NCBI GenBank assembly: GCA_030625085.1
Contig: DAOURK010000009.1
Location: 1,237 to 65,236, forward strand
Source: Pseudomonadota bacterium
GTDB lineage: Bacteria; SZUA-182; DTGQ01
Reading direction: 5' to 3'
DNA: 64,000 nt
The translations under genes and the position numbers were made by a program. Positions 26,233 to 43,716 of this stretch are shown piece after piece. Under the pieces are notes generated by a model that saw only the letters and a program-made list of their open reading frames with translations, did no database searches and was not told where the DNA came from. Numbering within the stretch: the first letter of the stretch is position 1; each line of letters opens with the position of its first letter.

Positions 26233-27192
26233 TCATCTTGATAGAATAATCTTATTTAAATCTTGCCTGGATGGGGCACCAGGCTGATGATCAGGATAAC
26301 CTATCGCAACCAAACTGATGGGTATGAGAACAGGATTCAGTGCGAAATGTTTATAAAAAAATTCGTACTTTGACTTTTCCATAAAAATCTCCCCTAAACC
26401 ATTCCACCCCTTGAATCCAACCCAGCAAGCACCAAAGCCCCTCGAATGCAGCAAAAGTAACATATTTTGAATAAAAGCCGCTCCATCCAAATAGGCAAAG
26501 TGTTTCTCATTAGATCCATAAAGACTGGCATTAATAAAGATGATAGCCAAAAGCGGGGCATTTTTATAAAAATCGTTTGGAAAAAAAGTGGTTAAAAATT
26601 CTTTATTTGTTTTATCATCAACCAGTAATATCTCCAAAAATTGACGATTACAAGATGTTGGCGCCCACTTTGAAATCTCAATGATATTATAAATATCATT
26701 AATAGAAATCTTTTTATCTTTCCATCTTCGAATGCTTCGCCTCTTCAGCATTACATCGATCAGATTTTGCTGATTACCTGATAAATGAACCTGGGCCGAT
26801 TCAGGAATCTCCATACCATTGCTGTTATCATTGGGAATGCCTTCCTTTCCCATGATATACATCTTATATGCCCATAAATATGTTGCACCCAATTGAAGTT
26901 TTCTTCTTTTCGCTCTTTTTAAAATAAATCTAATTTCGTTAAGCAGAGCATGAGGAATCTCTTTTTTCTGGGTTAATTTCAAATCGATACTGTGACCTAA
27001 TTGCTGCATTTTTCCCATTAAAGCTTTATCATTTGAAAGAGGCTTTTTATTATAATAATGTGAGAAATAAATTGTGCTTAAAAATTGATTAGACTTAATG
27101 ACTTTTTTAATGAATTCCCTCAACTTATTAAATCTCCTCATCAACTTATTAAATCTCCTCAAATACCTTATCATGCATGATCTAAGGCACAC
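26233..27192 (-). CDS. Nitroreductase family protein with N-terminal extension
   Basis: KRRSIRRW, WAPTSCNRQ, AAFIQNMLLLLHSRGFGACW, AIGYP. Confidence 0.85.
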   Translation of the reverse strand: MCLRSCMIRYLRRFNKLMRRFNKLREFIKKVIKSNQFLSTIYFSHYYNKKPLSNDKALMGKMQQLGHSIDLKLTQKKEIPHALLNEIRFILKRAKRRKLQLGATYLWAYKMYIMGKEGIPNDNSNGMEIPESAQVHLSGNQQNLIDVMLKRRSIRRWKDKKISINDIYNIIEISKWAPTSCNRQFLEILLVDDKTNKEFLTTFFPNDFYKNAPLLAIIFINASLYGSNEKHFAYLDGAAFIQNMLLLLHSRGFGACWVGFKGWNGLGEIFMEKSKYEFFYKHFALNPVLIPISLVAIGYPDHQPGAPSRQDLNKIILSR

Positions 27193-27213: not shown

Positions 27214-27328
27214 TATTTACCAAAAATGCTAATATTGGCATTTTTGGTAAATAGGCTGCTTGAGGCTACAAAAAATCCTTATAAATAACTATTTAGCGGA
27301 TTTGCCAACCCTGGCATTTCCGCTAAAT
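27214..27328. repeat. Two adjacent inverted repeats upstream of the distal EPS genes
   Basis: Perfect 16-bp arms TATTTACCAAAAATGC / GCATTTTTGGTAAATA (27214-27253). Second hairpin ATTTAGCGGA..TGCCA / TGGCA..TCCGCTAAAT (27291-27328). Confidence 0.75.
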
Positions 27329-27505
27329 GGAAATATGACGCCACTAAAAAAATTTATTTTTATTTCATTTTCTAGCCTACGTTCTGTCCCTATTGTGCTA
27401 TCTACATTAAATATCAACCCTCATAGCATGGTGAGTCAGAAGGCTAACTTCGATTAAGCTGCCATCACTTTTAAGTAATTTTGTTTACCATAGTCTAAAA
27501 TCTGA

Positions 27506-27877
27506 TTATCCTTGGTAATTAACGTAGATCCTTGCTTTCTGGCGGTTAATAATCCGGCCCGCAGGATCACCATGGAAATTTCCAGGCAACCTGTTGCTTG
27601 CAATAGCAATTTTAGGCATTATTGGCAGTAGGGAAATACCATGCGTAGTTAACGCCCTGTTTACCCATACCATGCAATCAATCTCAAAAGTTATTCTTCC
27701 TTTCGCCTCCAATATCACGATTCCCCATACTGATATGACTAATAATTTAAGACAAGTCTCTTTAAAGGCCGTCTCAATTGTTTTTAAACATTTTGATGCC
27801 CCCAACTGCTCATTGCCGTTCATGAGCTAAAGCCAACTATGCGTATCAAGAAGCACCGCTTTTGGGGTTTTACTCAT
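27506..27877 (-). pseudogene. vapC: VapC (PIN) toxin pseudogene
   Basis: MSKTPKAVLLDTHSWL*LMNG...ISVW...FHGDPAGRII, with an in-frame TAG at 27827-27829. Confidence 0.8.
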
Positions 27878-28096
27878 CGACATTCCATTTTTCCTTGATA
27901 GGCTGCACAATGCGCTGTTAATGGCAACTGTTCCTTTTAAATATCCAAAAACCGGACAGGGAGGTTGCACTTCAATAGGGATAAGTTTGATGACCGGTTT
28001 GCCGCGCTTAGTTATTATTACTTCTTCTTGATTTTTGCGGATATCATCCATGCGTTTGAGAGACTTCGCCTTGAACTACCCGGCAGCAATTTTCAT
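27870..28096 (-). pseudogene. Phd/YefM antitoxin pseudogene
   Basis: MKIAAG*FKAKSLKRMDDI...VIITKRGKPVIKL. TAG at 28076-28078 plus a frameshift before the IVQPIKEKWNVDE tail. Confidence 0.8.
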
Positions 28097-28128
28097 TTTA
28101 GGATTCCTTAATTGTGACCATTTATATA

Positions 28129-28341
28129 TTACCTCAATCTTTTTTTTAATTCCTCTACATCGTTTATGTCTAATAGTTCGGCGCCTATTTGGTTCAGCTT
28201 ACTAAAATTTTTAATTGATTTTATGTGTTTTTTCAGATTAGGAGAAAGGGCACCAAATTTTTTTTTGATTTGATTTAGGATTAAAAGCTGCATATTTTCC
28301 ATACCCTTTTCCATGCCCTTTTTTTCATATACTGTAATCAT
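28129..28341 (-). CDS. Stand-alone C-terminal (DUF4351-like / RpnS-like) domain of an Rpn-family nuclease, copy 1
   Basis: MITVYEKKGMEKG...LILNQIKKKFGALSP...ELLD. Own SD GAGGT. Matches the tail of the 37191-37793 frame. Confidence 0.7.
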   Translation of the reverse strand: MITVYEKKGMEKGMENMQLLILNQIKKKFGALSPNLKKHIKSIKNFSKLNQIGAELLDINDVEELKKRLR

Positions 28342-28353
28342 ATCTTTTACCTC

Positions 28354-28480
28354 GGGAAAAAAAGGGCACAGGGCACAAGGCGTAAGGGGAAAAAGGAGGG
28401 CTTAGGGCTCAAGGCGCAGGGCATAGGGCAAAAAGAAGGGCTTAGGGCTCAAGGCTTGGGGTGCAGGGGAACGGGCTTGG
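28354..28480 (+). repeat. G-rich heptamer tract T1 (NNAGGGC)
   Basis: ACAGGGC ACAAGGC GTAAGGG...TTAGGGC TCAAGGC GCAGGGC ATAGGGC AAAAAGA AGGGC TTAGGGC TCAAGGC. Confidence 0.9.
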
Positions 28481-28815
28481 ATGAGTCGGGTTAACATGCC
28501 GGAAATGCGTTTACATTCTTTTTCAATGTGATCAAAGTTTTGTTTGGATAGGTAACCTATTTCGAAAGCGATAATGGATTGTGTCAAAACTTCCGCTGTG
28601 GATCCTTTGGCAGTGTAAAAGAACTTGACTGCCTGTTTGTCAGTGTTAAGTTCGTCGCCTTCTGCAATATTACTAGAGATAGAGACAGATGCTCGCCGAA
28701 TTTGGTCTTTAAGGCCATCGTCATTCGCGAAGGCGCCTTGATTAGTTAATTTGTAAATTAAGACGGCGAGGTTTTTTGAATGCTGCCAAACGTTTAGTTC
28801 ACGAAATTTTCCCAT
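28402..28815 (-). CDS. Four helix bundle protein (23S rRNA-IVP / Avd-fold family)
   Basis: FRELNVWQ...LKDQIRRASVSISSNIAEG...AKGSTAEVLTQ. The reading frame runs on into tract T1. Confidence 0.9.
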   Translation of the reverse strand: MGKFRELNVWQHSKNLAVLIYKLTNQGAFANDDGLKDQIRRASVSISSNIAEGDELNTDKQAVKFFYTAKGSTAEVLTQSIIAFEIGYLSKQNFDHIEKECKRISGMLTRLIQARSPAPQALSPKPFFLPYALRLEP

Positions 28816-28826
28816 CGCCTGATTTC

Positions 28827-29204
28827 TTATAAATATTTAATTATTTCATCTATGACATTCGCTATTTCAGGCATATGAGTGCAAATTATTGTTCCATCTC
28901 TCGTATGTTTATGTGACTTACACCTTAATGCCGGTTTATGCAAAGCGTTATCATATCTGAAGATGAGTTTTCCATCTCTATCCAGGTATTGATAAGAATA
29001 ACTCACTTTATCTATTGTATATTTGGCATCTATATATTCTTGGATATGAAAAACCGAATTGTCTACGAGGATAATTTTGGCTTTTATAACGGCTTGTTTG
29101 CGTGCCCGCATTTCTTCTTTAAATTCAACAGCCTCCGTATATCCATAATCTCTAAGCCTTTCTAAGGCTCGTTGAAATGTTTCAAGGTAATTACGAAGTG
29201 ACAT
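28827..29204 (-). CDS. DUF6516/TumE-like putative toxin, copy 1
   Basis: YSYQY...LIFRYDNALH...HKHT motif. Confidence 0.7.
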   Translation of the reverse strand: MSLRNYLETFQRALERLRDYGYTEAVEFKEEMRARKQAVIKAKIILVDNSVFHIQEYIDAKYTIDKVSYSYQYLDRDGKLIFRYDNALHKPALRCKSHKHTRDGTIICTHMPEIANVIDEIIKYL

Positions 29205-29511
29205 GCGCGATACTTCTTAATACAGTTAAGTCTTCTTTTAATTTAATAAATAAATAATACTCTCCCGCCCATTCAACATATTCAATATCTTTTCCCTTTA
29301 AATCTTCAGCAGTCCAATTTTCTATGAACTCATCAGATGAGATATTGTATTTTTTTTCAAACTTTTTAAGCCGCTCTTTGGCAAGCTTAAGACTATATTT
29401 AATACGCAGGGTTTCTGTCTCAATAACCTCCTTGATAAATTTAACTGCCTTATCGGGCTTATTTGTCTCCAAAACTATTTTGGCCATTGTTTCCTCACTC
29501 TTAATTTCCAA
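29191..29511 (-). CDS. Putative antitoxin partner (TumA-like), copy 1
   Basis: LKKFEKKYNISSDEF...EYVEWAGE. Overlaps the downstream toxin gene. Confidence 0.65.
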   Translation of the reverse strand: MEIKSEETMAKIVLETNKPDKAVKFIKEVIETETLRIKYSLKLAKERLKKFEKKYNISSDEFIENWTAEDLKGKDIEYVEWAGEYYLFIKLKEDLTVLRSIAHVTS

Positions 29512-29551
29512 ATACTATAGGTGACTAGTTAACCTTTTTCCTTATTTCCAT

Positions 29552-29779
29552 TTATATTGCATAATATTTTCTCAATCTTTTTTTTAATTCCTCTACATCG
29601 TTTATGTCTAATAATTCGGCGCCTATTTGGTTCAGCTTACTGAAATTTTTTATAGATTTTATACGTTTTTTTAGATCGGGAGAAAGGGTACCAAATTTTT
29701 TTTTGATTTGATTTAGGATTAAAAGCTGCATATTTTCCATGCCCTTTTCCATGCCTTTTTTCTCATATACAGTAATCAT
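29552..29779 (-). CDS. Stand-alone RpnS-like / DUF4351-like domain, copy 2
   Basis: Near-identical to 28129-28341, with the same GAGGTAAAAGATATG start. Confidence 0.7.
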   Translation of the reverse strand: MITVYEKKGMEKGMENMQLLILNQIKKKFGTLSPDLKKRIKSIKNFSKLNQIGAELLDINDVEELKKRLRKYYAI

Positions 29780-29800
29780 ATCTTTTACCTCTAAAAAAAT

Positions 29801-29888
29801 AAGGGTTTAGGGAATAAAAAAGGGCTTAGGGCTTAGGGAATGAAAAAGGGCGTAGGGCTTAGGGCATAGGGCTTAAGGAACGTAGGGC
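29801..29888 (+). repeat. G-rich heptamer tract T2
   Basis: TTAGGGA..AGGGC TTAGGGC TTAGGGA..AGGGC GTAGGGC TTAGGGC ATAGGGC..GTAGGGC. Confidence 0.9.
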
Positions 29889-30045
29889 CGGTATCAAGCG
29901 CTAATTGTAATATTGTACCACCATTTGGACCATAAAGTTTTGTTGGAATTAAAATTAATCCTTTTTCTGCGTTAAAGGAGTGCTCACAATACTATAGCCA
30001 TTTTTTCAGGTTGTGGCCCAATATACAAAATAGCAGAATGTAAAT
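29888..30045 (-). pseudogene. Partial duplicate of the DUF5678-like 3' end and the retropepsin 5' end, truncated at the catalytic DTG
   Basis: Homologous to about 33672-33830. Reads ...ILQLALDTG and then enters tract T2. Confidence 0.8.
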
Positions 30046-30062
30046 CCTCTATATATTATCTT

Positions 30063-30422
30063 TTATATTATCTTTAATTTTTCCGAAACTATAACAAAAG
30101 CCCTTTCTACAAATTCTTCTATGGTAACCGCTTCTTCGGCAATTTTAGATTTGGCATGTTCATCCGGGCTTTCAAAAGGATGAAAATGCCATTGGCCAAA
30201 AATATAATCTTGGCCAAAAATTCTCCTATCATTTAAGATAAGAGCGTAACTTTTTTTGGGTTTTTTTATGTTTACATATATTTGAACAAATAATTCCTTT
30301 AAAAAGTGAAGCCTCGCTTTTATGATAGATTTTGTTTTCTCAATAATTTCCGATTCTATAACGATATCAAACTGGGAAATTTCTTCTAAATTTCGAAATA
30401 TCTCCTCAATGCTTTCTTTCAT
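30063..30422 (-). CDS. TumE/DUF6516-like putative toxin
   Basis: SYALI...IFGQD...WHFHPF His-rich motif; coupled to an upstream small gene. Confidence 0.55.
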   Translation of the reverse strand: MKESIEEIFRNLEEISQFDIVIESEIIEKTKSIIKARLHFLKELFVQIYVNIKKPKKSYALILNDRRIFGQDYIFGQWHFHPFESPDEHAKSKIAEEAVTIEEFVERAFVIVSEKLKII

Positions 30423-30724
30423 TCCATTTCCTTAATTTCTTCCTCTATATCCTCTAAAACAGTTACAGACATATCCCAGTCAAAGTAATCTCTTTCGATT
30501 TCGTAATTCATTTCTCTGTCTTTATATACTTTTTCAAAATTTTCAAATTTCATATTATATTTTTTTTCAAAATTCTTTACCATAAATATATATTTATTTT
30601 TTTTTCTTATTAGTTCTCTGTTTATCAATTCTTTAATTGCATCAACTATATCTCCTTTTTGGGTAATATTAACAAGCTCTTTTTGTACTTTCTCTGATAA
30701 AACAACATTGTTTGATATTGACAT
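30419..30724 (-). CDS. Putative antitoxin (FEKKY...DYFDW type), copy 1
   Basis: KNFEKKYNMKFENF...ERDYFDWDM. 4-bp overlap with the toxin gene. Confidence 0.6.
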   Translation of the reverse strand: MSISNNVVLSEKVQKELVNITQKGDIVDAIKELINRELIRKKNKYIFMVKNFEKKYNMKFENFEKVYKDREMNYEIERDYFDWDMSVTVLEDIEEEIKEME

Positions 30725-31135
30725 TTAAAATCCCTTCCTCAAAATACTCCTTGCTCTTAAAAGGTGCCTTTATAGTTCAGTACCTATTCGACGCAGCTTA
30801 TTAAAATTTTTTACAGCTTATAGGCGCTCTTCGATCTCAGGGGGGGTGGGCCAAAAATAAACACCTTTTTCATTATTTTGTTCCCTGACAATAGCTGTAT
30901 TGATCATGCTTTTCAGAAGCATTGCTTAATTTCCCTTCTGTTGCTCGTTCACCCATTGTATAAAGAAGCTTATCTGCTGATGATAGGTTTTTTGGTTAAA
31001 TAACACTGGTTCCATAGGATCAATTTGCCCTTTTTTGTAAATACCTTAGATTGTTGTATACATTGCAAATCTCCTCGCTTCTTTATAAATAATATCGGAG
31101 TTTTATTCGCAAAGCAATAGGTATATTCATCTGTT
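30725..31135 (-). repeat. About 400-bp segment duplicated at about 35918-36328; includes a degenerate Rpn C-terminal remnant
   Basis: Near-identical by eye to the second copy. Minus strand reads EIEERL*AVKNFNKLRRIGTEL, similar to IKSIKNFSKLNQIGAEL. Confidence 0.65.
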
Positions 31136-31140
31136 CCCCA

Positions 31141-31163
31141 GGTCCCAGGCCCTTGGCCCCCAG
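31141..31163 (-). repeat. Short heptamer tract T3 in the opposite orientation
   Basis: Minus strand CTGGGG GCCAAGG GCCTGGG ACC, directly after the truncated HEPN frame. Confidence 0.55.
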
Positions 31164-31361
31164 TTAGGTTGTTTGAATTATAATATCACTCAGTCTGGCA
31201 AACCTACTGGTAAAGGCTTCAAATCTATCAAGTTCATCAAGAGTATATTGTTCTTTAATGGCTATCTTTGTGCACGCAGCATAAGAGTAATTCATAATCT
31301 CTGTTGCATTTTCCAACAAAGATAATTCCTCTTTTAATAAACTAAGCAGATCCTGAATCAC
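31164..31361 (-). pseudogene. Truncated HEPN-like nucleotidyltransferase substrate-binding protein
   Basis: DELDRFEAFTSRFARLSDIIIQ, then a stop at 65 aa (about half the expected length); paired with the MNT gene. Confidence 0.65.
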
Positions 31362-31639
31362 AATAAAATGCCCTTTTTATAGGCAATTTTTACAAAAGGA
31401 TTGGTTGTATCCTTGGCAAGAATAAGATGTATCTTTTGTTCACCTAACCTTTTATAAAATCTTTGCATAATCTTTATTTTGTCTTCATAACCTAATTTTT
31501 GGGAAATTATCAACAGGTCTATATCTCCGCCTTTTTGCCTGTCATCAACACGTGAACCAAAAAGGTAAGTTTTTGCATAATTATCTAAATCGTGAATACA
31601 ATCTTTAATTGTTCTAACTTCATTCTCTTTTAAACGCAT
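31358..31639 (-). CDS. Minimal nucleotidyltransferase (MNT)
   Basis: YLFGSRVDDRQKGGDIDLL. Confidence 0.88.
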   Translation of the reverse strand: MRLKENEVRTIKDCIHDLDNYAKTYLFGSRVDDRQKGGDIDLLIISQKLGYEDKIKIMQRFYKRLGEQKIHLILAKDTTNPFVKIAYKKGILL

Positions 31640-31663
31640 AATTTCAACGTATCATATTTTCAT

Positions 31664-31849
31664 TTAGGCGACAAGGGGAAAAAGATGACAGCGAGGTCTG
31701 GCGGTTTTTTGTTGCGACCAGCCCTTTTCTTCCACTAAAAGCTTTATTCTACCGGCCAGCACTAACACTGTGAGCCTTTTGCAGTGGGTGGTATTGAGCT
31801 TGGCTGCCAGCGCCAAGGCCTCGTCGTGGCTGATGTCCTTTACCTGCAC
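31664..31849 (-). pseudogene. XRE/HTH antitoxin-like fragment
   Basis: RIKLLVEEKGWSQQKTA (start of an HTH) followed by unrelated sequence. Confidence 0.45.
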
Positions 31850-32058
31850 TTCGATTTCCTGATCCCCACGTTTTTTGGCACGAAATGATATGAACGTGCT
31901 TCTTTAAATGTCTCCAGTAAAGGTCCGCTTTTTGAAAAAGGGTCTTTTATTATGGCTGGTAAATGATTAAAAACAATTTCTTTTTGTATTGAATACGGTA
32001 ATCTTTTTAAATCTCTTTTCGCAGACAGCGAGAGTTCAAGGTTATATGGTTTAACCAT
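31840..32058 (-). pseudogene. RelE/ParE toxin, 3'-truncated
   Basis: YNLELSLSAKRDLKRLP...DPF...RSYHF, then diverges. Confidence 0.65.
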
Positions 32059-32272
32059 AATCTCTCTTTAATTCCTCTAAAGTGATAAATTGCTCTCCAC
32101 GTTTCTTGGCTTCAATAGTTTCTTTGGTTCTTTTATTAACATATTCTAAAAATGAGCTGTCTTCCTTGATCTTTAAAAATTCAATAAAATGTAAAACTTC
32201 CTTCTTCCCTTTCTCTGGTAAACTTTTGATATTTTTTAAAATTAGCTCATTAAGTTCAAATGTTCCCGCCAT
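32051..32272 (-). CDS. DUF2281-like antitoxin
   Basis: IKSLPEKGKKEVLHFIEFLK...FITLEELKRDYG; overlaps the RelE-like gene. Confidence 0.6.
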   Translation of the reverse strand: MAGTFELNELILKNIKSLPEKGKKEVLHFIEFLKIKEDSSFLEYVNKRTKETIEAKKRGEQFITLEELKRDYG

Positions 32273-32358
32273 AACTATTCTCCATTTAATTAGTTATTTT
32301 ACTTTATCAATCAGAGAAAAGATTGTCAATGGGCCAGGGGGTATGTCAAACTACTTTG

Positions 32359-32510
32359 ACTTATTAAATCTCCTCGTTTTTGGTTTAATCACGGGTTTTT
32401 ATTTTAGCCGCAGACACACGCAGACTTGCGCAGACTATTTATTTTTAATAATTATTATTGTGGGCTTCAGGTAAATGTTGTAAATATTCGTTTGATTGCA
32501 GCCCTAATTT
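32359..32510. repeat. Internally deleted copy of 34463-34770, containing CGCAGAC x3 (10-bp period)
   Basis: CGCAGAC at 32409, 32419 and 32429. Shares tttttggtt..atcac.ggtttttatt and cttcaggtaaat..attcgtttgatt with the 34.6 kb copy. Confidence 0.75.
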
Positions 32511-32519
32511 CAAATAAAA

Positions 32520-32600
32520 AGGGCTTAGGGCTTACGGCTTAGGGGAATATAGAAGGTTTTAGGGCTTAGGGCTTAGGGCTTAGGGCATAGGGAAAAAAAG
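32520..32600 (+). repeat. G-rich heptamer tract T4 with four perfect TTAGGGC units
   Basis: TTAGGGC x4 at 32559-32586, then ATAGGG; fits the G3N1-7 x4 quadruplex pattern. Confidence 0.92.
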
Positions 32601-32606
32601 GTTTAT

Positions 32607-33002
32607 TTAAATCCAATTTTCAATTTTAAGTCCTTTTATCCGTTTAAAATGCCTTTGATTATTTGTAACAAGCGTAAAATCATTTACCAAAGCACAAGCG
32701 GCAATAAACAGATCAGCATCATCAATAATTTCCCCTCTCTTTATCAACATCGCTTTTAATTTACCAAAGGTTTCGCATATTGCCTGGTTTGATTCAATAA
32801 TCCCCAATTTGCTTTCCAATAACCTAACATTGGATAAATTTTCCTTGACTTTCTGTGACTTATGGGCGCCATAATAAAGTTCACTTAAAGTCAGAAACGA
32901 AGTATATATATTATCAAGGCCGATATCTAAGGCTTTCTTTTCGATATCTGTATTTCCCTTTATCCAATAAACACAGATATTAGTATCCAAAAGGTAAGTC
33001 AT
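32607..33002 (-). CDS. vapC: VapC PIN-domain toxin
   Basis: YLLDTNICVY, TLSELYYG, DDADLFIAA, LVTNNQRHF. Confidence 0.92.
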   Translation of the reverse strand: MTYLLDTNICVYWIKGNTDIEKKALDIGLDNIYTSFLTLSELYYGAHKSQKVKENLSNVRLLESKLGIIESNQAICETFGKLKAMLIKRGEIIDDADLFIAACALVNDFTLVTNNQRHFKRIKGLKIENWI

Positions 33003-33253
33003 AATTCAACTTTACGTCCGCCAAAGCCTGTTCTGTGAGAATATATGTCTTCTATTATCTCTTCTGCACGCCTTTCATCTTCCCAGATTCCACAAAGGCC
33101 ACTGCTTTTTTCATGTCTATTTTTTTTTGCCTTCACTGTGAATATACCTTCTTGGAGGGAACGAAGCATTTTTATTACTTGGGGTATAACTTCGCTCGGC
33201 ATTTTACGTATTTCTTCAAGAACTTTTTCCTCATATTTAGTCCTGGTTTGCAT
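32999..33253 (-). CDS. VapB-like antitoxin (DUF2281-like)
   Basis: 4-bp overlap with vapC; LCGIWEDERRAEEII. Confidence 0.65.
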   Translation of the reverse strand: MQTRTKYEEKVLEEIRKMPSEVIPQVIKMLRSLQEGIFTVKAKKNRHEKSSGLCGIWEDERRAEEIIEDIYSHRTGFGGRKVEL

Positions 33254-33346
33254 AAATTTTCCTTCAATATTTTATCTTTTTTTTAATTAGTTTCAATTGA
33301 TTTTATTTTATCAGCATTGGAAAAACTTGTCAATTTAAGCTAAGAC

Positions 33347-33378
33347 AGGGGCATAAGGCTCAGGGCGTAGGGCATAGA
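33347..33378 (+). repeat. G-rich heptamer tract T5
   Basis: CAGGGGC ATAAGGC TCAGGGC GTAGGGC ATAG. Confidence 0.8.
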
Positions 33379-33392
33379 AAATTTCAACTCAA

Positions 33393-33774
33393 TTATTCTA
33401 TATTTACAAATCCATCTCGAAGGTCAACTACTATTTTATGTCCTCGAAAAAAATCTAAGCCAAGGACTCCATCTACTGTAACACTAAGTAAGGTATGACA
33501 AAGTACAGAAAAATTCCAACGTTTCAACCCCATGGCCTCGATTTCTTCTATTGCGATTTGCGGTACAAATTCTATTCCACTCCCCGTCGTCATTTTGATT
33601 CGTTCTGATAACGATAGCCGGATCATAACCCAAAAGCACCAAGATATCCCAGTTCACAATACATCTAGTTGCGCCGGTATCCAATGCTAGTTGTAATATT
33701 GTATCACCATTTGGTCCCCAAAATTTTGTTGGAATTAAAATTAATCCTTTTTCTGGGTTAAAGGAGAGACTCAC
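33393..33774 (-). pseudogene. Retropepsin-like aspartyl protease, frameshifted near 33615
   Basis: LALDTGAT in one frame; MTTGSG...DGVLGLDFF in another. Confidence 0.8.
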
Positions 33775-34013
33775 AATACTACAGCTATCTCTTCAGGTTG
33801 TATTCCTGTATACAAAATAGCAGTATGTTTAGGACATAATTTCCTTGCCTTGCGGTAAACTTCGTCTCTATCTTTACTATGCCAAAGTACCTTACCCTTT
33901 ATCACATTCAGGGTTTCATCAGTTTCCGGATCTTCCAAAAGAACCCATTCGGATTTAAACCGATTCTTGATTTCTGCTAAAATTGCAATTTTACTCATTA
34001 TCACACCCCACAA
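33771..34013 (-). CDS. Small DUF5678-like protein, partner of the retropepsin gene
   Basis: SEWVLLED...GKVLWHSKDRDEVY...ILYTG; overlaps the protease start. Confidence 0.55.
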   Translation of the reverse strand: MWGVIMSKIAILAEIKNRFKSEWVLLEDPETDETLNVIKGKVLWHSKDRDEVYRKARKLCPKHTAILYTGIQPEEIAVVL

Positions 34014-34134
34014 ATAGTGGTTTTATGCTAATTCAACTGTTTCGGTTTTTTTCTTTTTTGTCTTTATTTTTATCCCTGCTGTGTATAATAAAATTTTAGT
34101 CTTTACAGCGAGCATAGTCAAGAAAATGAATAAA

Positions 34135-34212
34135 GAAGGCGGAGGGAAAAAGAAGGGCTTAGGGGACAAAAAGGCGTAAGGCGAAGGGGGAAAAAGAAGG
34201 ACGCAGGGCTTA
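34135..34212 (+). repeat. G-rich heptamer tract T6
   Basis: GGAGGGA AAAAGA AGGGC TTAGGGG..GTAAGGC GAAGGGG..GCAGGGC. Confidence 0.8.
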
Positions 34213-34294
34213 TAAGATCTTTTTGTGGATATTCAGGTAGGGTTTCGATTATGTCTAAGGCCTCTTGAAATGTTACGTTTCGTTGACTAGACAT
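34212..34294 (-). pseudogene. 5' fragment of a small antitoxin-like gene, truncated at tract T6
   Basis: MSSQRNVTFQEALDIIETLPEYPQKDLI, then enters the repeat. Confidence 0.5.
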
Positions 34295-34420
34295 CTAAAT
34301 ATATCCTTATATAAAATTTATTGAACAATATTATATTTTATGTAAGGCTTTTTTTGCCTGATTTAATTCCCTCATTTTTTCCTTTTTTATACCTTTACGA
34401 AATTTTGGCCGACGTGTGAC

Positions 34421-34618
34421 CTAAATTTTTTTTGCCCAGGCCCTCGCGTCGAAAATCTGCCGACTTATTAAATTTCCTCCTTTTGATTTTAGGAATGTTA
34501 CACTGTTCCTCATAGCCGGCTTCGTTAATTTTCGTTTTTGATCGATCCTGGCGCGGGGGTAGATTGTTTCGTCCAGGACGATGTTGGTGCTGGGGAGTGT
34601 GGTTTTTGGTTTGATCAC
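34421..34618 (-). pseudogene. ParB-N-like gene fragment
   Basis: IVLDETIYPRARIDQKR, then degenerate; preceded by CGCAGAC x2 (34636, 34646). Confidence 0.45.
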
Positions 34619-34914
34619 TGGTTTTTATTTTTGGCCGCAGACTCACGCAGACAAAAGCGAACTATTTATTTTTACTAATTATTATTGTGCGCTTCAGGTA
34701 AATTTATATACATTCGTTTGATTTTTGGCTTTCAGGTGAAGTTATAAACATTCGTTTGATTTGTGGCCAACAAGCGCAATATTCACCATTATGGCTTAAC
34801 ACCCTTCCGGCATTTTCGGCAAATGGTTTTACATAGCGTCAGCAACTGCCTTAAACCATAGCGTAAAACTAATCGCCAGGCCCTTCTCCTTTAAGCCCTA
34901 CTTTGGTTGGGCTT

Positions 34915-35208
34915 TTATTTTCTACTTCGACCATAGGCAGGATGCCTGCGCTGGTGCTTAACTACCGTTATCCGAAGTACGTCTTTTTCCAAGACTCGGA
35001 AGTAAATGACGTAAGGGAAACGCTTCATTAACGACCGTCGAACATTTGTCTCCACAATCTTCCAGCGGGTTGGCATTGATGCGATTTTCAAAATCTGCAG
35101 TTCAAATTCATTGAGAAATTCTGCCCCTAATCCATGAGTACACTCGTTAAAATATTTGATAATCTCACGTAACTCACGTTCAATTGCCGGATGATATTCA
35201 ACCCTCAT
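34915..35208 (-). CDS. RelE/ParE family toxin
   Basis: VEYHPAIEREL...RRSLMKRFPYVIYF...VKHQRRHPAY. Confidence 0.88.
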   Translation of the reverse strand: MRVEYHPAIERELREIIKYFNECTHGLGAEFLNEFELQILKIASMPTRWKIVETNVRRSLMKRFPYVIYFRVLEKDVLRITVVKHQRRHPAYGRSRK

Positions 35209-35428
35209 TTTCGTAGCTTATTCATTAATTCTTTGTGGGACAACGGTACCACATCGCCCCGTTCAATTTCCGCATCACGTTGCTTTGCAAGAGCAATAGC
35301 TTCCTCATCAGAAATATCAGCAGGGAGAATATATGGATCCTCAAGACTTCCCCATATTGTCTCGGCAAGAATTGCTCTATCTTGCGAACTGAGTCGCAAA
35401 GCCTCACTGGCTAACTGATCAATGTTCA
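35205..35428 (-). CDS. Addiction-module antitoxin (TIGR02574-like); start probably MNIDQL
   Basis: ALRLSSQDRAILAETIWGSL...RDAEIERG. Confidence 0.8.
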
Positions 35429-35611
35429 TAAAAAAGCCTCCCTTAGACAATGCCCATGATATGATAAATAGCAAAAGCAATATCATAAATATAAATTTAT
35501 TTTTTTTTACGTCCGCCTAAGCTCACTATGGTTTAATAATATCGGAATTTTAGTTGCAAGGCAATCGGCATTTTTTATATTCAGCGCAAAGCGCGCTGAG
35601 AAATTAATTTT

Positions 35612-35917
35612 TTAAATCAAGAACCAACCTTCATAATCCTTATCCTCTAAAACAGTTACAGCCATATCCCAGTCAAAGTAATCTTTTTCGATTTCGTAAT
35701 TCATTTCTCTGTCTTTATATACTTTTTCAAAACTTTCAAATTTCATATTATATTTTTTTTCAAAATTCTTTACCATAAATATATACTTATTTTTTTTTCT
35801 TTTTAGCTCTCTGTTTATCAATTCTTTAATTGCATCAACTATATCTCTTTTTTTGGTAATATTAACAAGCTCTTTTTGTACTTTCTCTGATAAAACAACA
35901 TTGTTTGATACTGACAT
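35612..35917 (-). CDS. Putative antitoxin, copy 2 (altered C-terminus, no toxin partner)
   Basis: Matches 30419-30724 up to VTVLED, then a different tail. Confidence 0.6.
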   Translation of the reverse strand: MSVSNNVVLSEKVQKELVNITKKRDIVDAIKELINRELKRKKNKYIFMVKNFEKKYNMKFESFEKVYKDREMNYEIEKDYFDWDMAVTVLEDKDYEGWFLI

Positions 35918-36324
35918 TTAAAATTCCTTCCTCAAAAGACTCCTTGCTCTTAAAAGGTGCCTTTATAGTTCAGTGCCTATTCGACGCAGCTTATTAATAT
36001 TTTTTATAGCTTTTAGGCGCTCTTCTATCTCAGGGGGGTGAGACAAAAATAAACACCTTTTTCATTATTTTGTTCCCTGACAATAGCGGTATTGATCATG
36101 CTTTTCAGAAACATTGCTTAATTTCCCTTCTATTGCTCGTTCACCCATTGTATAAAGAAGCTTATCTGCTGATGATAGGTTTTTTGGTTAAATAACACTG
36201 ATTCCATAGGATCAATTTGCCCTTTTTTGTAAATACCTTAGATTGTTGTATACATCGCAAATCTCCTCGCTTCTTTATAAATAATATCGGAGTTTTATTC
36301 GCAAAGCAATAGGTATATTCATCT

Positions 36325-36436
36325 GTTCTTTAAGGCCGTAGTCATTAGCAAATATGCCTTTCCCTGTTAATTTATAAATAAATACGGCGAGGTCCTTTGC
36401 ATGCTGCCATACTTTAAGCTCCTGAAATTTTCCCAT
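36325..36436 (-). pseudogene. 5' fragment of a second four helix bundle gene
   Basis: MGKFQELKVWQHAKDLAVFIYKLTGKGIFANDYGLKEQ, then joins the duplicated 400-bp segment at GAACAGAT. Confidence 0.8.
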
Positions 36437-36447
36437 CGCCTAATTTT

Positions 36448-36825
36448 TTATAAATATTTAATTATTTCATCTATGACATTCGATATTTCAGGCATATGAG
36501 TGCAAATTATTGTTCCATCTCTCGTATGTTTATGTGATTTACACCTTAATGCTGGTTTATGCAAAGCGTTATCATATCTGAAGATGAGTTTTCCATCTCT
36601 GTCCAGGTATTGATAAGAATAACTCACTTTATCTATTGTATATTTGGCATCTATATATTCTTGGATATGAAAAACCGAATTGTCTACGAGGATAATTTTG
36701 GCTTTTATAACTGCTTGTTTGCGTGCCCGCATTTCTTCTTTAAATTCAACAGCCTCTGTATATCCATAATCTCTAAGCCTTTCTAAGGCTTGTTGAAATG
36801 TTTCAAGGTAATTACGAAGCAACAT
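36448..36825 (-). CDS. DUF6516/TumE-like toxin, copy 2
   Basis: Three amino-acid differences from 28827-29204. Confidence 0.7.
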   Translation of the reverse strand: MLLRNYLETFQQALERLRDYGYTEAVEFKEEMRARKQAVIKAKIILVDNSVFHIQEYIDAKYTIDKVSYSYQYLDRDGKLIFRYDNALHKPALRCKSHKHTRDGTIICTHMPEISNVIDEIIKYL

Positions 36826-37132
36826 GCGCGATACTTCTTAATACAGTTAAGTCTTCTTTTAATTTAATAAATAAATAATATTCTCCCGCCCATTCAACAT
36901 ATTCAATATCTTTTCCCTTTAAATCTTCAGCAGTCCAATTTTTTATGAACTCATCAGATGAGATATTGTATTTTTTTTCAAACTTTTTAAGCCGCTCTTT
37001 GGCAAGTTTAAGACTATAGTTTATACGGAGGGTTTCTGTCTCAATAACCTCCTTGATAAATTTAACTGCCTTATCGGGCTTATTTGACTCCAAAACTATT
37101 TTGGCCATTGTTTCCTCACTCTTGATTTCCAA
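36812..37132 (-). CDS. TumA-like antitoxin, copy 2
   Basis: Four amino-acid differences from 29191-29511. Confidence 0.65.
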   Translation of the reverse strand: MEIKSEETMAKIVLESNKPDKAVKFIKEVIETETLRINYSLKLAKERLKKFEKKYNISSDEFIKNWTAEDLKGKDIEYVEWAGEYYLFIKLKEDLTVLRSIAHVAS

Positions 37133-37190
37133 ACTCTATAGGCAACTAGTTAACCTTTTTCCTTGTTTCCATTTATATTGCATAGTATTT

Positions 37191-37793
37191 TCATAACCTT
37201 TTTTTTAATTCCTCTACGTCGTTTATGTCTAATAGTTCGGCGCCTATTTGGTTCAACTTGCTGAAATTTTTAATTGATTTTATGCGCTTTTTCAGATCGG
37301 GAGAAAGGGCACCAAATTTTTTTTTGATTTGATTTAAGATTAAAAGCTGCATATTTTCCATGCCCTTTTCCATGCCCTTTTCCATGCCCTTTTCAATGCC
37401 CTTTTCAATGCCCTTTTTCTCATATAGAGTAATCATATCTTTTACCTCCCTGTAACTTCCATCATGATCTAGGGTTTTGAAAAACTGTTCTTCGTCTTTT
37501 TTTGTTAAGACCATCGAGTCATTGATAAAATTTATCAGGATGCTTTGCCTTGCTTCATCAATTCGGGAAGTCAAGATCAATCTTAAAGCCTCCATCTTGA
37601 CTTTTGTTCTCTCTTTTTTATTGAAACCCATTTTTACCATCAAGGCATAGGCTAATGGGTTATTAACTGTTAAATATTTTCTATAATCAAGTTCTTTGAG
37701 CTTTATTTTTTTGTAACGAAAATTTAAATAAATTTCATCATATTCTATCTTGTATTCACGATCTATCTCTTTTTTCCATAAATGATCATCAGC
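37191..37793 (-). pseudogene. 5'-truncated Rpn-family (PD-(D/E)XK recombination-promoting nuclease / putative transposase) gene with intact internal RpnS-like start at 37436
   Basis: Open frame from directly after the ATPase stop: ADDHLWKKEID...KIKLKELDYRKYLTVNNPLAYALMVKM...YREVKDMITLYEKKG(IEKG)2(MEKG)2. Embedded SD AGGGAGGT at 37444-37451. Confidence 0.7.
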
Positions 37794-39008
37794 TTAATAT
37801 CGAATAAATGAACAAAATATCAAGGCGGACACTGCTATGAAGGCTAAAATTAAGGCTACGTTTAAAATAATTTTGCTTTGCCTTTTAATACGCTCTAAGT
37901 CATGATCAAAATCGGACAAACGTTTAACCAAATCGTTTTTCTCCGGTCGAAGTTCTTTCAACTCCATATCATGAACTTTTAATGTCTTGTCCGTGGTTAT
38001 GAGTATTTGTTTAAATTCTTCTATAATGCTGCTATTATATTTCTTGGTATCAGATTCGTCCCTGCCTTTTTTTTTATTTTCCAGAATCTTTATACTTTTT
38101 TCCAGATCGGCAATCTTTCCCTCAAGAAGGCGAAATTTGATTTTCCAACTATTTTTATTTTGCCTTGCTGATGGAGGGCCGGATTTTTCGCCCAGGAAAA
38201 GCCCTCCTTCCTTTTTATCCGCCACAACATTTTCTATTACCTTATCGCTTATCTGTGGTAAGCTGTCGGCAAAGCCGTATACCAGGGCCATATCACAGAT
38301 AATATTAATTACTCGGGGGATGCCCTCGGAGTATGTGGCTATCTTATTAATCGCCTCGTCGGAAAAAATTTCATTTGTATTGGCCCCGGCCACTGATAAT
38401 CGGTGGTGTATATATTCCTTAACCTCCAGAGACGAAAGCCTGTCAAGATGATAGTTAACGATGATTCGTTGCGCAAATTGTTCAAGGCCGGGTTTCAAAA
38501 GGACTTCTCTCAACCCGGGCTGCCCCACTAAAATAATCCGGATAAGGTGCTCTTTTTCAGTCTGTAAATTGGAGAGCATCCTTACCTCTTCCAGAACTGC
38601 AGGGGAGAGGTTTTGTGCCTCATCTATAATTAAGACCGTTTTTCTTTTTTTTGCGTACTGTTCGATGATAAATTTGTTAAAGGCCTCATACAGGGCTATT
38701 TTGTTTTTAGTCTTATATTCTACTTCGAATTCTTTCAGGACCGCCAGCAGAAACTGCACGGAATTAAGTTTAGTATTAAAAATAATAGCCAGATTGATAT
38801 TGTCTTCGATCTCTTTGACCAGATATTTAATGAGCGTGGTTTTGCCAGTGCCGATCTCCCCGCTTATGACAATAAACCCGGCCTGCTGCATGAATCCGTA
38901 GTGCAAATAGTCGATGGCCGTCTTATGTTTGCTGCTCATAAAAAGATAGCCGGGGTCAGGAAGTATGGTAAAAGGTCTTTCTTTTAAATGGTAGAATTCT
39001 TTATACAT
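37794..39008 (-). CDS. ExeA-family AAA ATPase (exosortase/PEP-CTERM system-associated)
   Basis: MYKEFYHLKERPFTILPDP, GEIGTGKTT, LIIDEAQNL, LVGQPGL, GIPRVINIICD. Confidence 0.9.
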   Translation of the reverse strand: MYKEFYHLKERPFTILPDPGYLFMSSKHKTAIDYLHYGFMQQAGFIVISGEIGTGKTTLIKYLVKEIEDNINLAIIFNTKLNSVQFLLAVLKEFEVEYKTKNKIALYEAFNKFIIEQYAKKRKTVLIIDEAQNLSPAVLEEVRMLSNLQTEKEHLIRIILVGQPGLREVLLKPGLEQFAQRIIVNYHLDRLSSLEVKEYIHHRLSVAGANTNEIFSDEAINKIATYSEGIPRVINIICDMALVYGFADSLPQISDKVIENVVADKKEGGLFLGEKSGPPSARQNKNSWKIKFRLLEGKIADLEKSIKILENKKKGRDESDTKKYNSSIIEEFKQILITTDKTLKVHDMELKELRPEKNDLVKRLSDFDHDLERIKRQSKIILNVALILAFIAVSALIFCSFIRY

Positions 39009-39055
39009 TTATGATTGTTACCATTTATTGATGATCTCGTAAAAAGACAATTGCA

Positions 39056-39880
39056 TTATTTATTACATCGTTGATAATAGTACTCTTGCTTCTTTGAGAA
39101 AGGAGATTTGTTCAAGACCGTGCCGATTAAATTCCTTCCTTTAATAAGACGAAGCGCCTTTTCCAACTCATGGCGTTGTGTTTTACCATACTCCACCACC
39201 AGAATAATGCCGTCAACGTATTCGGAAAGAATCAGCGCATCGGCAAAACCCAAAAGAGGGGATGAATCAAAGATAATATAGCGGTCCTTATAGCGGCTCT
39301 TTACCTCCTCCACAAAATTTTTCATTCGGAAAGAGCCCATAAGTTCAGCAGAGTTGCCCACCTTTTTACAGCTCGGCAGCATAGTCAGCTTATTTATTCC
39401 TGGTGAGATAAAAAGATCATTCAGCGGTTTTTTCCCTGAAAGATAATCGGATAAACCCGCCGAGGGAGACAAAGCAAACAGATTGTGCAAAGAGGGCCTT
39501 CTCAAATCTGCGTCAATCAGCAAAACCGTCTGTTGTAATTCCTTAGCCAGACTGATGGCCAGATTGGTCGCAGTAATGCTTTTCCCTTCGTTATCCACAG
39601 CACTGGTTACCAATAAGGTGTTTAAACCCTCTTCCATTGTTTGCTGAAAAATACGAGTTTTTAATATTTTATATTGGTCGGCAATCGATGTGTTATCAAA
39701 AAAGGCAGTTAGTCTATTTTCCTGCAAAGTAGCCTCACTTACCTTGATAACCTTGGTCTGTTCATACTGAATTGAATCTATCCGATTACTGCTCTCTTCA
39801 TTTTCAACTGTATGCCCGGTAGATACAACCTCTTGTCTTTGACTTTTTGCCTTGTTTAATGCTTTTTCAATTTTACTCAT
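39056..39880 (-). CDS. BY-kinase (Wzc/CpsD cytoplasmic tyrosine autokinase)
   Basis: TSAVDNEGKS, LIDADLRRP, IIFDSSP, C-terminal YYY cluster. Confidence 0.9.
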   Translation of the reverse strand: MSKIEKALNKAKSQRQEVVSTGHTVENEESSNRIDSIQYEQTKVIKVSEATLQENRLTAFFDNTSIADQYKILKTRIFQQTMEEGLNTLLVTSAVDNEGKSITATNLAISLAKELQQTVLLIDADLRRPSLHNLFALSPSAGLSDYLSGKKPLNDLFISPGINKLTMLPSCKKVGNSAELMGSFRMKNFVEEVKSRYKDRYIIFDSSPLLGFADALILSEYVDGIILVVEYGKTQRHELEKALRLIKGRNLIGTVLNKSPFSKKQEYYYQRCNK

Positions 39881-39931
39881 TATACTTTCCCATCATTTAA
39901 TAAAATATAATAAAATAAAAATTCACTCCTA

Positions 39932-41698: not shown

Positions 41699-41704
41699 TA
41701 TTCC

Positions 41705-42922: not shown

Positions 42923-42995
42923 CAGACCCCCTTTTTAAGACTGCCGCCACTTTAAGGGACAACCACCACTATCTTAAGGTACCATCAACTCCATC

Positions 42996-43571
42996 TTAAG
43001 GGACCACCAACACATCTCCGCTGTGAAGCGGTATATTTTGTTCAAGAAATTCACCTTTCTCTATTTTTTCATAATTAAAGCGTATTCTGATATGTTGACT
43101 ATTTTCATTTCTAAGAATTAAGATTTTTTTTGCTTTGGCAAATGGGGTAAGACCACCGGCCAGAGCAAGGGCCTGTAATACATTAAGCGGCTTGCCGATA
43201 CTGTATACTCCAGGTCGAGCAACCTTGCCCAGCACATAAATTTTCAGGCTGTTTACCTTAATAACCATAACCGTCACAACAACGTCAGGGATAAATTTTT
43301 CGAGGCCGGACTTTAATTCCTTTTCTAATTCTTCTACTGAGACGCCGCCGGCCCTTAATTCGCCGATAAGGGGAAAGGATATTTTCCCGTCGGGCCTTAC
43401 GACCACTTCTTTCGTTAGACTCGGGTCTTTCCAAACTGAAATTTCCAGGATGTCTTCAGGGCCTATTAAGTAAGTTTTGTCTGTTTTCTCAGCCGAGGAA
43501 AAAACAGGATATAGTAAAATAAAATGGGCCATTAATAAGGCCGGCAACAAAAACTTTGCTAATTTTGGCAT
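42996..43571 (-). CDS. Polysaccharide export protein (Wza/OPX, SLBB domain)
   Basis: YLIGPEDILEISVW, VRPDGKISFPLIG, ALALAGGLT, GDVLVVP. Start MPKLAK at 43571 with SD GGAGG. Confidence 0.9.
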   Translation of the reverse strand: MPKLAKFLLPALLMAHFILLYPVFSSAEKTDKTYLIGPEDILEISVWKDPSLTKEVVVRPDGKISFPLIGELRAGGVSVEELEKELKSGLEKFIPDVVVTVMVIKVNSLKIYVLGKVARPGVYSIGKPLNVLQALALAGGLTPFAKAKKILILRNENSQHIRIRFNYEKIEKGEFLEQNIPLHSGDVLVVP

Positions 43572-43716
43572 ATAGACCTCCCTTAATATCTGTTCGAAAA
43601 TAACCATATAACACTTTAAAAAATAACACATTCATAATTCGTGGTGGCTCAGAGAGCCATGAGTGTTTATTCGTGAATTAAATTAAGCTGGTAAGCTCAT
43701 TATAGATTTTCAGAAT

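Follow-up and report, generated by a model that had tools for sequence, protein, structure and literature searches.

How toxin-antitoxin (TA) genes come to be gathered, multiplied and reshuffled inside a polysaccharide operon where no integrase is present is the question raised by a 64-kb stretch of contig DAOURK010000009.1 (assembly GCA_030625085.1, Pseudomonadota bacterium), the whole of which is referred to here as the window. Its GC content is ~36% and profile searches of its open reading frames (ORFs) outline a long minus-strand XrtA/PEP-CTERM exopolysaccharide (EPS) locus, in which a 10.6-kb gap of small ORFs, each plausible gene being on the minus strand, separates an ExeA-like ATPase from a nitroreductase. 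The array that fills this gap occupies 27381-37793 (10.4 kb, ~27 small genes and fragments, all on the minus strand); an earlier reading made without database searches, called here the sequence-only reading, had described it as splitting the EPS locus at this point, and the ORF map and the profiles agree. On balance, the sequence comparisons favour an integrase-less type II TA island at the conserved/variable joint of the EPS locus, in which general recombination would reshuffle the content and tandem heptamer tracts would be the preferred crossover points.

The relatives at the same site show that its content is not fixed. In L044 (JGI 3300033144), the ExeA protein is 89% identical and the export block ~91% identical at the nucleotide level; the contig shares the window's junction at the ExeA stop, continues for 92 nt in the Rpn remnant (window 37622-37531) and then passes to VapB-VapC and tract T3 (33278-32514). 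Relative to the window it is without 4.25 kb, and the joint bears the shared octamer CTGATAAA, an 8-nt microhomology. Its PIN gene is broken, the repeat composition of T3 differs and, past T3, an unrelated ORF follows with its own TTGACA-type site. The second relative, L028 (Logan SRR31055110), matches window 29626-27380 as a 2.3-kb block whose neighbours differ on both sides: its upstream tract meets DUF4351 at another position than in the window and, after the Phd-PIN module, which ends in the window near 27381 together with the homology to L028, it carries intact ParB_N and N6_N4 methylase genes, while the window keeps a 181-nt ParB piece elsewhere in the array. L056 (ExeA 47%, nitroreductase 42%) has a syntenic operon in which two HicB/HicA-type units come after ExeA, together with gene fragments and an (ACTCCTT)5 tract; flippase, nitroreductase and pyruvyl transferase are the distal genes. 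L057 (ExeA 53%) and L058 (47%) have an empty site, with EPS genes 16-170 nt after ExeA that are different in each; the first biosynthesis gene varies among L056, L057 and L058. As a separate observation, the 92-nt Rpn remnant of L044 (7644-7735) is 99% identical to window 37622-37531 vs ~91% for the flanking operon, which could reflect selection or recent exchange.

Since the content differs in L044, L028 and L056 and the site is empty in L057 and L058, the ExeA 3' end is, as far as these ExeA-side comparisons go, a recurrent insertion and turnover point and the limit of EPS-locus synteny. The hotspot proposed by the sequence-only reading, in which modules are accumulated and shuffled without an integron, agrees with what the relatives show, but acquisition alone does not describe it, since internal duplication is large. 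In fact, two long duplications, A and B, and three shorter repeats are detected by self-comparison (Table 1), and much of the array is thus, by its sequence, the product of internal duplication and not of acquisition alone. A DUF4351 piece precedes each of the four TumA-type genes, so an ancestral Rpn-TumA-TumE unit has been multiplied. The TumA and TumE duplicates have a ratio of non-synonymous to synonymous substitution rates (dN/dS) of 0.12-0.15, which means purifying selection. In copy 2 of duplication B (35641-36328), non-coding DNA is accompanied by a decayed fragment of DUF4351 and by an orphan TumA-like ORF; compared with its counterpart 30419-30724, this ORF has a dN/dS of 0.7, without purifying selection.

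The second feature of the array is its tandem heptamers, (AGGGCTT)n / (GGGCTTA)n, G-rich on the plus strand and C-rich in the mRNA, all located between co-oriented ORFs or at their ends. Matches to AGGGCNTAGGGC are almost confined to the array (17 of the 18 in the window, 0.53 expected), as are the canonical G-quadruplex (G4) motifs, all three of which lie inside array tracts (0.03 expected). Several truncated genes abut the tracts, namely the retropepsin fragment cut after its DTG codons, the antitoxin stump at T5, the C-terminus of the four-helix-bundle (4HB) gene at T1 and the partner of the MNT nucleotidyltransferase at the opposite G-tract; moreover, the 5'-truncated DUF4351 ORFs begin directly after T1 and T2. 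The abrupt gene ends at junctions noticed in the first description are confirmed for Rpn, 4HB, RelE-like, ParB, MNT partner, retropepsin and antitoxin fragments. When the points at which homology breaks off, both inside the array and from genome to genome, are listed, 8 of 27 fall within 12 nt of a tract vs 1.5 expected (binomial P ~8e-5), and a conservative count of independent events places 6 of 16 at tracts (P ~1e-4). One clear event, the 4.25-kb difference to L044, relied on plain microhomology. As to T1, L028 and the window differ there by 33 nt in length and the identity changes at this tract: between the two tracts (RpnS 3' end, TumA, TumE and 4HB) there are 2 mismatches in ~1,250 nt (99.8%) and the coding sequence of TumA1/TumE1 is identical, vs ~78 mismatches in ~900 nt (~91% identity) after T1. 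This step looks like the pattern expected for a recently exchanged, tract-bounded unit.

Several points weigh against this interpretation. The list of breakpoints was drawn up after the tracts had been seen and is therefore post hoc, BLAST alignments tend to stop in fast-evolving repeats, and about two thirds of the breakpoints are away from tracts. The relatives are compared on the ExeA side, and the three related contigs that cover parts of the array are all short, none spanning the interval from ExeA to the nitroreductase. L028 is a k-mer assembly contig, and its identity step at T1 could be due to an assembly path switching strains or loci at the repeat. Finally, sigma-70 promoter-like sites are about as numerous (49) as in shuffled sequence (46), and the idea of own promoters rests on a few good matches.

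In the mechanism proposed, the modules would have entered as self-contained operons, with the antitoxin first, overlapping stop and start codons and, in some cases, good promoter-like sites, and would be retained through their addictive nature at a neutral site. Their reshuffling would be due to the general recombination of the host and not to a dedicated recombinase: unequal crossing-over of the RecA type, with the repeated tracts and the RpnS and TumA sequences as substrates, would be accompanied by slippage and microhomology joining. The heptamer tracts would be preferred points of crossover or breakage, since they provide homology in numerous registers and are able to adopt G4 or slipped structures. 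At the same time, the array genes are decaying via nonsense, frameshift and truncation.

The product of the 4HB gene belongs to the S23p family, encoded in the intervening sequences (IVSs) of 23S rRNA, and the PF05635 profile agrees with its earlier description as a four-helix bundle. The final ~20 codons of the gene come from tract T1; homologues are 117 aa long with variable tails, and many of these C-terminal tails resemble translated heptamers. Around the window copy complementary arms are absent, there being only the 3' C-rich tract, and the TumE stop lies 11 nt upstream. T1 is the only tract in the window that adjoins a 4HB gene, and no 4HB coding remnants were found beside the solo tracts T3-T5, which for this reason cannot be shown to be 4HB-derived. 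The protein is widely conserved, with 70-78% identity across contigs of 36-57% GC. In L032, a phage-like contig of 69% GC, the gene lies between portal and protease with inverted (GGGCTTG)4 / (AAGCCCT)3 on either side; a viral-contig search with the 4HB alignment found no relative. In contigs from other metagenomes (L046-L055 and L060-L063), a 71-73% identical 4HB gene is part of lexA-[4HB]-imuB-dnaE2 mutagenesis operons, with a G-rich tract upstream and a downstream hairpin of G-tract, loop and C-tract (the hairpin in L046-L055 and L060); here the spacing from 4HB to the next gene in L046-L055 is 141, 148 or 155 nt depending on the sample, tract lengths varying in multiples of 7 nt. L056 carries a 4HB gene between Tyr kinase and ExeA with inverted (AAAGCTN)n / (AGCTTTN)n flanks, and L057 has a solo (GCTTTGA)3 tract directly upstream of the ExeA gene.

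Heptamer hairpins are also seen apart from the gene. A second, ORF-less hairpin occupies the imuB-dnaE2 interval of L046-L054, and a viral-contig scan for (GCCCTAA)2.5 returned 15 contigs, informative for L032 and for the existence of inverted heptamer hairpins. ORF-less inverted pairs occur in the unrelated contigs L007 (20280-20377), L016 (9064-9138 and 20514-20612), L031 (1219-1360), L035 (5502-5595) and L036 (1471-1582), each with a heptamer n-mer, a short spacer and a second tract that is the reverse complement in the clearest cases. These pairs, two of whose contigs are from Omnitrophota metagenome-assembled genomes (MAGs), suggest a widespread class of heptamer hairpins. In the transcript of the window, folding prediction indicates that the opposite G-tract could pair with T2 (~-36 kcal/mol, z -3.1); the predicted stem would close around the TumA-like gene together with the 119-aa partner, in a manner resembling an IVS stem.

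A different role for the tracts, possible although considerably less probable, is that they are true cassette-boundary sites, a functional analogue of attC. The array would then be an integrase-less counterpart of the integron based on simple sequence repeats, in which tract-bounded units (promoter, TA operon and 3' tract) are excised, exchanged and inserted as wholes; the 4HB protein might be a tract-binding helper, or G4 or hairpin forms may be processed in a structure-specific way that assists the exchange. VapBC, DUF5678-retropepsin and [RpnS-TumAE-4HB] each have tracts on both sides, L044 changes cassette directly after T3, a tract follows HicA in L056, and the TumAE-4HB segment is nearly identical to L028 up to T1. 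In addition, in unrelated contigs 4HB genes are flanked by tracts on both sides, inverted in L032 and L056, with sample-variable copy number. Nevertheless, a tract accompanies only about half of the modules, and tract sequences vary by lineage (GCCCTAA, GCCTTNN, AGCTTTN, ACTCCTT), so that no one conserved site exists. Moreover, no circular or excised form, no empty tract site and no candidate recombinase were found, the identity step in L028 could have been produced by the assembly, and general recombination at repeats accounts for the same data. If the tracts did act as boundary sites, TA and other operons would be exchangeable as tract-bounded units without an integrase.

General recombination also fits better than the doubtful view of the array as what decay has left of a single integrated mobile element (plasmid, integrative and conjugative element, or prophage) that lost its integrase and borders and left its former maintenance modules as TA genes. 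The ParB-methylase fragment, an intact gene pair in L028, points in this direction, Rpn genes and many TA modules are typical mobile-element cargo, and TumAE matches a PADLOC defence candidate (PDC-M44, components PDC-M44A/B). However, the absence of integrase, attC and transposase stated by the sequence-only reading holds for the 64-kb window by Pfam search, motif-pair scan and folding; in particular, no integrase or transposase domains were found by Pfam in ORFs of at least 150 aa. No att repeats were found at the borders, where no tRNA is present, the only one of the window being at 59.7 kb; a Rfam search of 26.5-38.5 kb at permissive threshold gave only a chance snoRNA match, and the whole array had no match in plasmid and phage records. 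Furthermore, L056 holds an unrelated TA set at the same site, and the internal duplications, together with the differing neighbours in relatives, indicate piecemeal turnover.

A repeat-driven assembly chimera is unlikely, indeed very improbable. The array contains repeats of 0.7-1.1 kb besides the tracts, and short-read contigs from the same sample break at them; yet these contigs are 100% identical to the window up to their ends in the repeats (L013 to 37693, L064 35715-33726, L027 33269-32136), the ExeA-Rpn junction, the adjacency of VapBC and T3 and the block 29626-27380 are found again in contigs from two further samples, and the duplicate copies differ by 3.5-6% and are therefore distinguishable. 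For the central 30-32 kb and 35.7-37.5 kb parts a chimera is unlikely but conceivable. The least credible explanation is a degenerate chromosomal integron array (a cluster of attC sites lacking an integrase, CALIN) with its integrase outside the window or lost, for although small co-oriented TA-rich cassettes resemble sedentary chromosomal integrons, the 64 kb contain no IntI and no R''/R' pair with at least 6/7 complementary bases, the only motif pair in intergenic DNA, at 34794-34912, gives no attC fold (z -0.8 and -0.2), and several cassettes have promoter-like sites and antitoxin-first operons.

The content of the array comprises five apparently intact TA pairs, four decayed TA units, one IVS-type 4HB gene and Rpn remnants. 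Profile searches match the known TA families PIN, ParE_toxin, TumE/TumA, PhdYeFM, Unstab_antitox, DUF2281 and Polbeta/MNT, three partner genes giving no family assignment, and seven TA-like pairs overlap by 4, 4, 4, 4, 8, 14 and 14 nt in the usual type II layout, with the antitoxin first. The inventory of the first description can be refined; it had overlooked three segmental duplications, the heptamers at the joints and the signs of function in the DUF4351 ORFs. Two VapBC modules had been counted: one is an intact pair and the other is a decayed Phd-PIN pair, in which, compared with L028, codon 7 of Phd is a nonsense codon and PIN has several frameshifts. Of the two RelE/ParE toxins, ParE stands, while the RelE-like ORF gives insignificant matches (E 0.4). 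The three TumE/TumA-like pairs reduce to two pairs and a third, TumA-like antitoxin whose toxin-side ORF has no detectable relative; similarly, the MNT half of the supposed MNT-HEPN module is recognized by its Polbeta match, and its 65-aa partner has neither a profile match nor a PDB match that would make it HEPN. The retropepsin pair is recognized, though in decayed form: DUF5678 is matched, and the correction of one frameshift restores gag-asp_proteas and Asp_protease_2 matches at ~1e-6. Function has probably been kept by the five TA pairs and the RpnS-type ORFs, and what remains would be debris. The sequence-only reading also put forward a possible role in stabilising or co-regulating the capsule locus; a terminator scan was not above shuffles and a sigma-54 motif scan was at chance level.

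The Rpn pieces, too, were correctly recognized, but are not all debris. The 5'-truncated gene next to ExeA is without the nuclease domain and keeps the C-terminal DUF4351/RpnS part, with five 4-aa KGIE/KGME repeats; its weak TIGR01784 match covers model positions 172-249, and the remnant begins at about model position 125-170. The RpnS antitoxins are small DUF4351 proteins that can be encoded by separate genes and have 4-aa repeats 8-20 residues after Met (PMC10400941). In the window the DUF4351 ORFs start with MITVYEKKGMEKGME..., and the KGME/KGIE repeats begin 8 residues past Met; the copies of the window have 2, 2 and 5 of them and that of L028 has 3, and they are encoded by a 12-nt tandem repeat (TTTTCCATGCCC) present in 2.3, 2.3 and 5.3 copies at 28295-28322, 29733-29760 and 37354-37417. 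Pairwise dN/dS of the DUF4351 copies is 0.02-0.24, that of ORF 29552-29779 against the other copies being 0.02-0.09, and the two copies with a common truncation are separated by 7 synonymous vs 3 non-synonymous changes. Since no intact RpnL PD-(D/E)XK nuclease domain and no further Rpn matches are present within the window, these ORFs, which the purifying selection on them suggests are probably functional genes and not debris, would be orphan RpnS genes. With Rpn/RpnS (PMC10400941, PMC5350276) they share the C-terminal DUF4351 domain, free-standing ORFs of ~70 aa and copy-variable KGIE/KGME repeats; the difference is that the array is without an intact RpnL nuclease.

Table 1. Coordinates of the features of the array and of the flanking EPS locus (positions in the window)
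Feature	Position	Strand	Remarks
Duplication A	28700-29791 vs 36321-37448		94% identical; RpnS, TumA, TumE, start of 4HB
Duplication B	30448-31136 vs 35641-36328		96.5% identical; [Rpn remnant-TumA-like] unit
Tract + DUF4351 unit	28126-28428 vs 29564-29878		84% identical
Retropepsin fragment repeat	29887-30041 vs 33673-33828		86% identical
122-nt intergenic unit	32376-32497 vs 34602-34723		86% identical
T1	28363-28468	+	Higher-order 40-nt unit
T2	29796-29878	+	Contains G4 motif
T3	32509-32599	+	(AGGGCTT) x9.6, canonical G4 motif; homology with L044 stops here
T4	33337-33379	+	Between retropepsin gene and VapB promoter-like site
T5	34129-34210		Antitoxin-like stump reads into tract
Opposite G-tract	31136-31163	G-rich on -	G4 motif; upstream end of duplication B copy 1
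Rpn (YhgA-like) gene, 5'-truncated	37191-37793	-	Frame open from ExeA stop; DUF4351 E 5.8e-10
TumA2 + TumE2	36812-37132 + 36448-36825	-	Intact, 14-nt overlap, part of duplication A
4HB N-terminal fragment	36275-36436	-	53-aa ORF, tblastn 72% over 39 aa; cut at duplication A/B joint 36321-36328
Decayed DUF4351 fragments	30772-30841 and 35965-36034	-	
Orphan TumA-like ORF	35612-35917	-	Altered C-terminus; in/at duplication B copy 2
Antitoxin (Unstab_antitox/TIGR02574) + ParE	35205-35486 + 34915-35208	-	Intact, 4-nt overlap
Antitoxin-like 5' fragment	34118-34294	-	Frame enters tract T5
DUF5678 + retropepsin-like gene	33771-34013 + 33393-33774	-	DUF5678 E 3.2e-5; one frameshift
VapB promoter-like site	33333-33305		11/12 match, with TG
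VapB-like + VapC PIN	32999-33253 + 32607-33002	-	Intact; PIN E 1e-17; between T4 and T3
DUF2281 antitoxin	32051-32272	-	Profile match
RelE/ParE-like ORF, truncated	31840-32058	-	Abuts ParB fragment
ParB fragment	31664-31849	-	Matches part of the intact L028 ParB_N gene at 97% identity
MNT nucleotidyltransferase	31358-31639	-	Polbeta E 1.2e-8
MNT partner, truncated, 65 aa	31164-31361	-	
TumA-like + 119-aa partner	30419-30724 + 30063-30422	-	Intact pair, 4-nt overlap; TumA-like BLASTP E 8e-5
DUF5678/retropepsin unit, second, fragment	29887-30041	-	86% identical to 33673-33828; cut after DTG codons, joined to T2
DUF4351 (RpnS-type) ORF, 75 aa	29552-29779	-	Two KGME repeats; tblastn 82% to Rpn remnant
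TumA1 + TumE1	29191-29511 + 28827-29204	-	Intact; TumE E 2.4e-16, TumA E 1.6e-8
4HB gene (23S rRNA IVS protein/S23p)	28402-28815	-	PF05635 E 9e-33, TIGR02436 E 1e-31
DUF4351 (RpnS-type) ORF, 70 aa	28129-28341	-	DUF4351 E 1.7e-10
Phd-PIN (VapC) pair, decayed	27454-28096	-	PhdYeFM E 8.8e-6
Export block	37794-43631	-	Poly_export, outer-membrane protein (TIGR03016), Wzz-like chain-length determinant (TIGR03007), Tyr kinase (TIGR03018), ATPase; ExeA-like ATPase last
Poly_export	42996-43631	-	
ExeA-like XrtA/PEP-CTERM ATPase	37794-39008	-	Upstream flank; TIGR03015 E 3.5e-95, AAA_22
Nitroreductase, 302 aa	26233-27141	-	Downstream flank; opens lower-GC biosynthesis block
Exosortase EpsH	1225-2859	-	Far end of biosynthesis block

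The EPS locus around the array is divided into the export block and a biosynthesis block whose order is nitroreductase, pyruvyl transferase, glycosyltransferases, ABC exporter, Wzy-like polymerase, sulfotransferase, heparinase-like, WecG-type transferase and exosortase EpsH. The GC content is about 0.37-0.43 in the export block vs 0.26-0.37 in most of the biosynthesis block, so the array lies at a compositional joint. Its co-orientation, which the sequence-only reading had stressed, is real but not special, because ORFs of at least 150 aa are almost all on the minus strand over 1225-59389, and all of them over 1225-43631. With ExeA as query, scans of GTDB genomes and JGI metagenomes returned only relatives of at most 57% identity, the checked GTDB ones being non-syntenic; all nitroreductase homologues are at most 42% identical, and the best named matches are MAGs of Desulfobacterota, Planctomycetota and Omnitrophota at <50% identity.

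Integrase-less chromosomal defence and TA islands at hotspots between conserved genes are a known kind of locus, and the array resembles them in its TA-rich variable content between the same flanks, the empty sites, the lack of a dedicated recombinase and the coexistence of intact and decayed modules; it differs in lying inside a polysaccharide operon and collinear with it, in being largely internal duplication and in having heptamer tracts at many joints. Capsule and O-antigen loci collect insertion sequences and gene remnants at their conserved/variable junctions, and the position after export, chain-length and kinase genes, the downstream drop in GC and the variable first biosynthesis gene are all found here, with TA modules in place of insertion sequences. 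In common with sedentary chromosomal integrons and CALIN, the array has small co-oriented cassettes and abundant TA modules; in contrast, it has no IntI or attC, its modules apparently have their own promoter-like sites, and its 3' tandem heptamers are not imperfect palindromes.

The tracts belong to a known general type, since like tracts are present in the 4HB-flanking contigs, in the Coxiella IVS, in Xanthomonas and Nostoc and in Beggiatoaceae and cyanobacteria; nothing specific on this heptamer, or on heptamers with TA genes, was found in the literature. The 23S IVS of Coxiella codes for a member of the same protein family; tandem heptamers whose number varies between strains adjoin its ORF, and it ends in inverted repeats that RNase III cuts (PMC4990558). 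The likeness to the 23S IVSs of Coxiella and Leptospira (PMC4990558) lies in the PF05635/TIGR02436 protein and the ORF-adjacent tandem heptamers of strain-variable copy number and extends, in the relatives L032, L046-L055, L056 and L060, to complementary arms flanking or following the 4HB gene. On the other hand, the 4HB gene is found here in mRNA operons (TA array, EPS operon, lexA-imuB-dnaE2, phage morphogenesis) and not in rRNA, the window copy keeps the 3' C-rich arm only, and solo tracts without a 4HB remnant are also present. G-rich heptameric simple sequence repeats between co-oriented ORFs are described as GGGNATC in Xanthomonas and GGGGA(C/T)T in Nostoc (PMC4692102), and TAACTGA repeats in Beggiatoaceae and cyanobacteria (PMC4679880). 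With these (PMC4692102, PMC4679880) the array tracts share the 7-nt unit with a G3 run, the location near the stops of co-oriented ORFs, G4 potential and variable copy number. Those repeats are genome-wide and in Xanthomonas mark more stable regions, whereas in the 64-kb window surveyed 17 of 18 matches are in one 10-kb island, at rearrangement breakpoints.

TA and defence islands without integrases are common, and for the way in which their modules are shuffled the locus is a concrete, testable candidate, with G-rich heptamer tracts at the joints that vary in length between samples and bound an apparently recently exchanged segment. It also connects the S23p/4HB IVS protein family, the bacterial heptamer repeats and free-standing RpnS antitoxin genes. 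Finally, an island at the conserved/variable joint of an EPS locus breaks short-read assemblies, which matters when capsule loci are read in MAGs.

Some minor observations concern the array edge and the rest of the window. A 21-nt unit (TCAACTTATTAAATCTCCTCA) is tandemly duplicated at the 5' end of the nitroreductase gene (27120-27161); read along the coding strand, the copies meet to form the ATG of the 302-aa protein, and the first copy gives the upstream GAGGAG. Related copies are intergenic within the array at 32356-32376 and 34460-34480, one with a 17-nt exact core. Directly upstream of the nitroreductase, at the distal edge of the array, 27214-27253 is a 20+20-nt near-perfect AT-rich palindrome that could be a terminator or an operator. 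An intergenic element of ~81 nt in the EPS locus (15362-15442) recurs with 81-84% identity in L045, a 59% identical relative, as an inverted pair (373-446 and 1995-2075) flanking the ExeA gene, and could be a small mobile or regulatory element. A secreted Gly/Met/Phe-rich protein without a Pfam match is encoded at 52447-53355 by tandem DNA repeats of 96 and 114 nt (GMGGFGRMNPYQYGGLFG... units), downstream of a sigma-54 activator and an HDOD protein.

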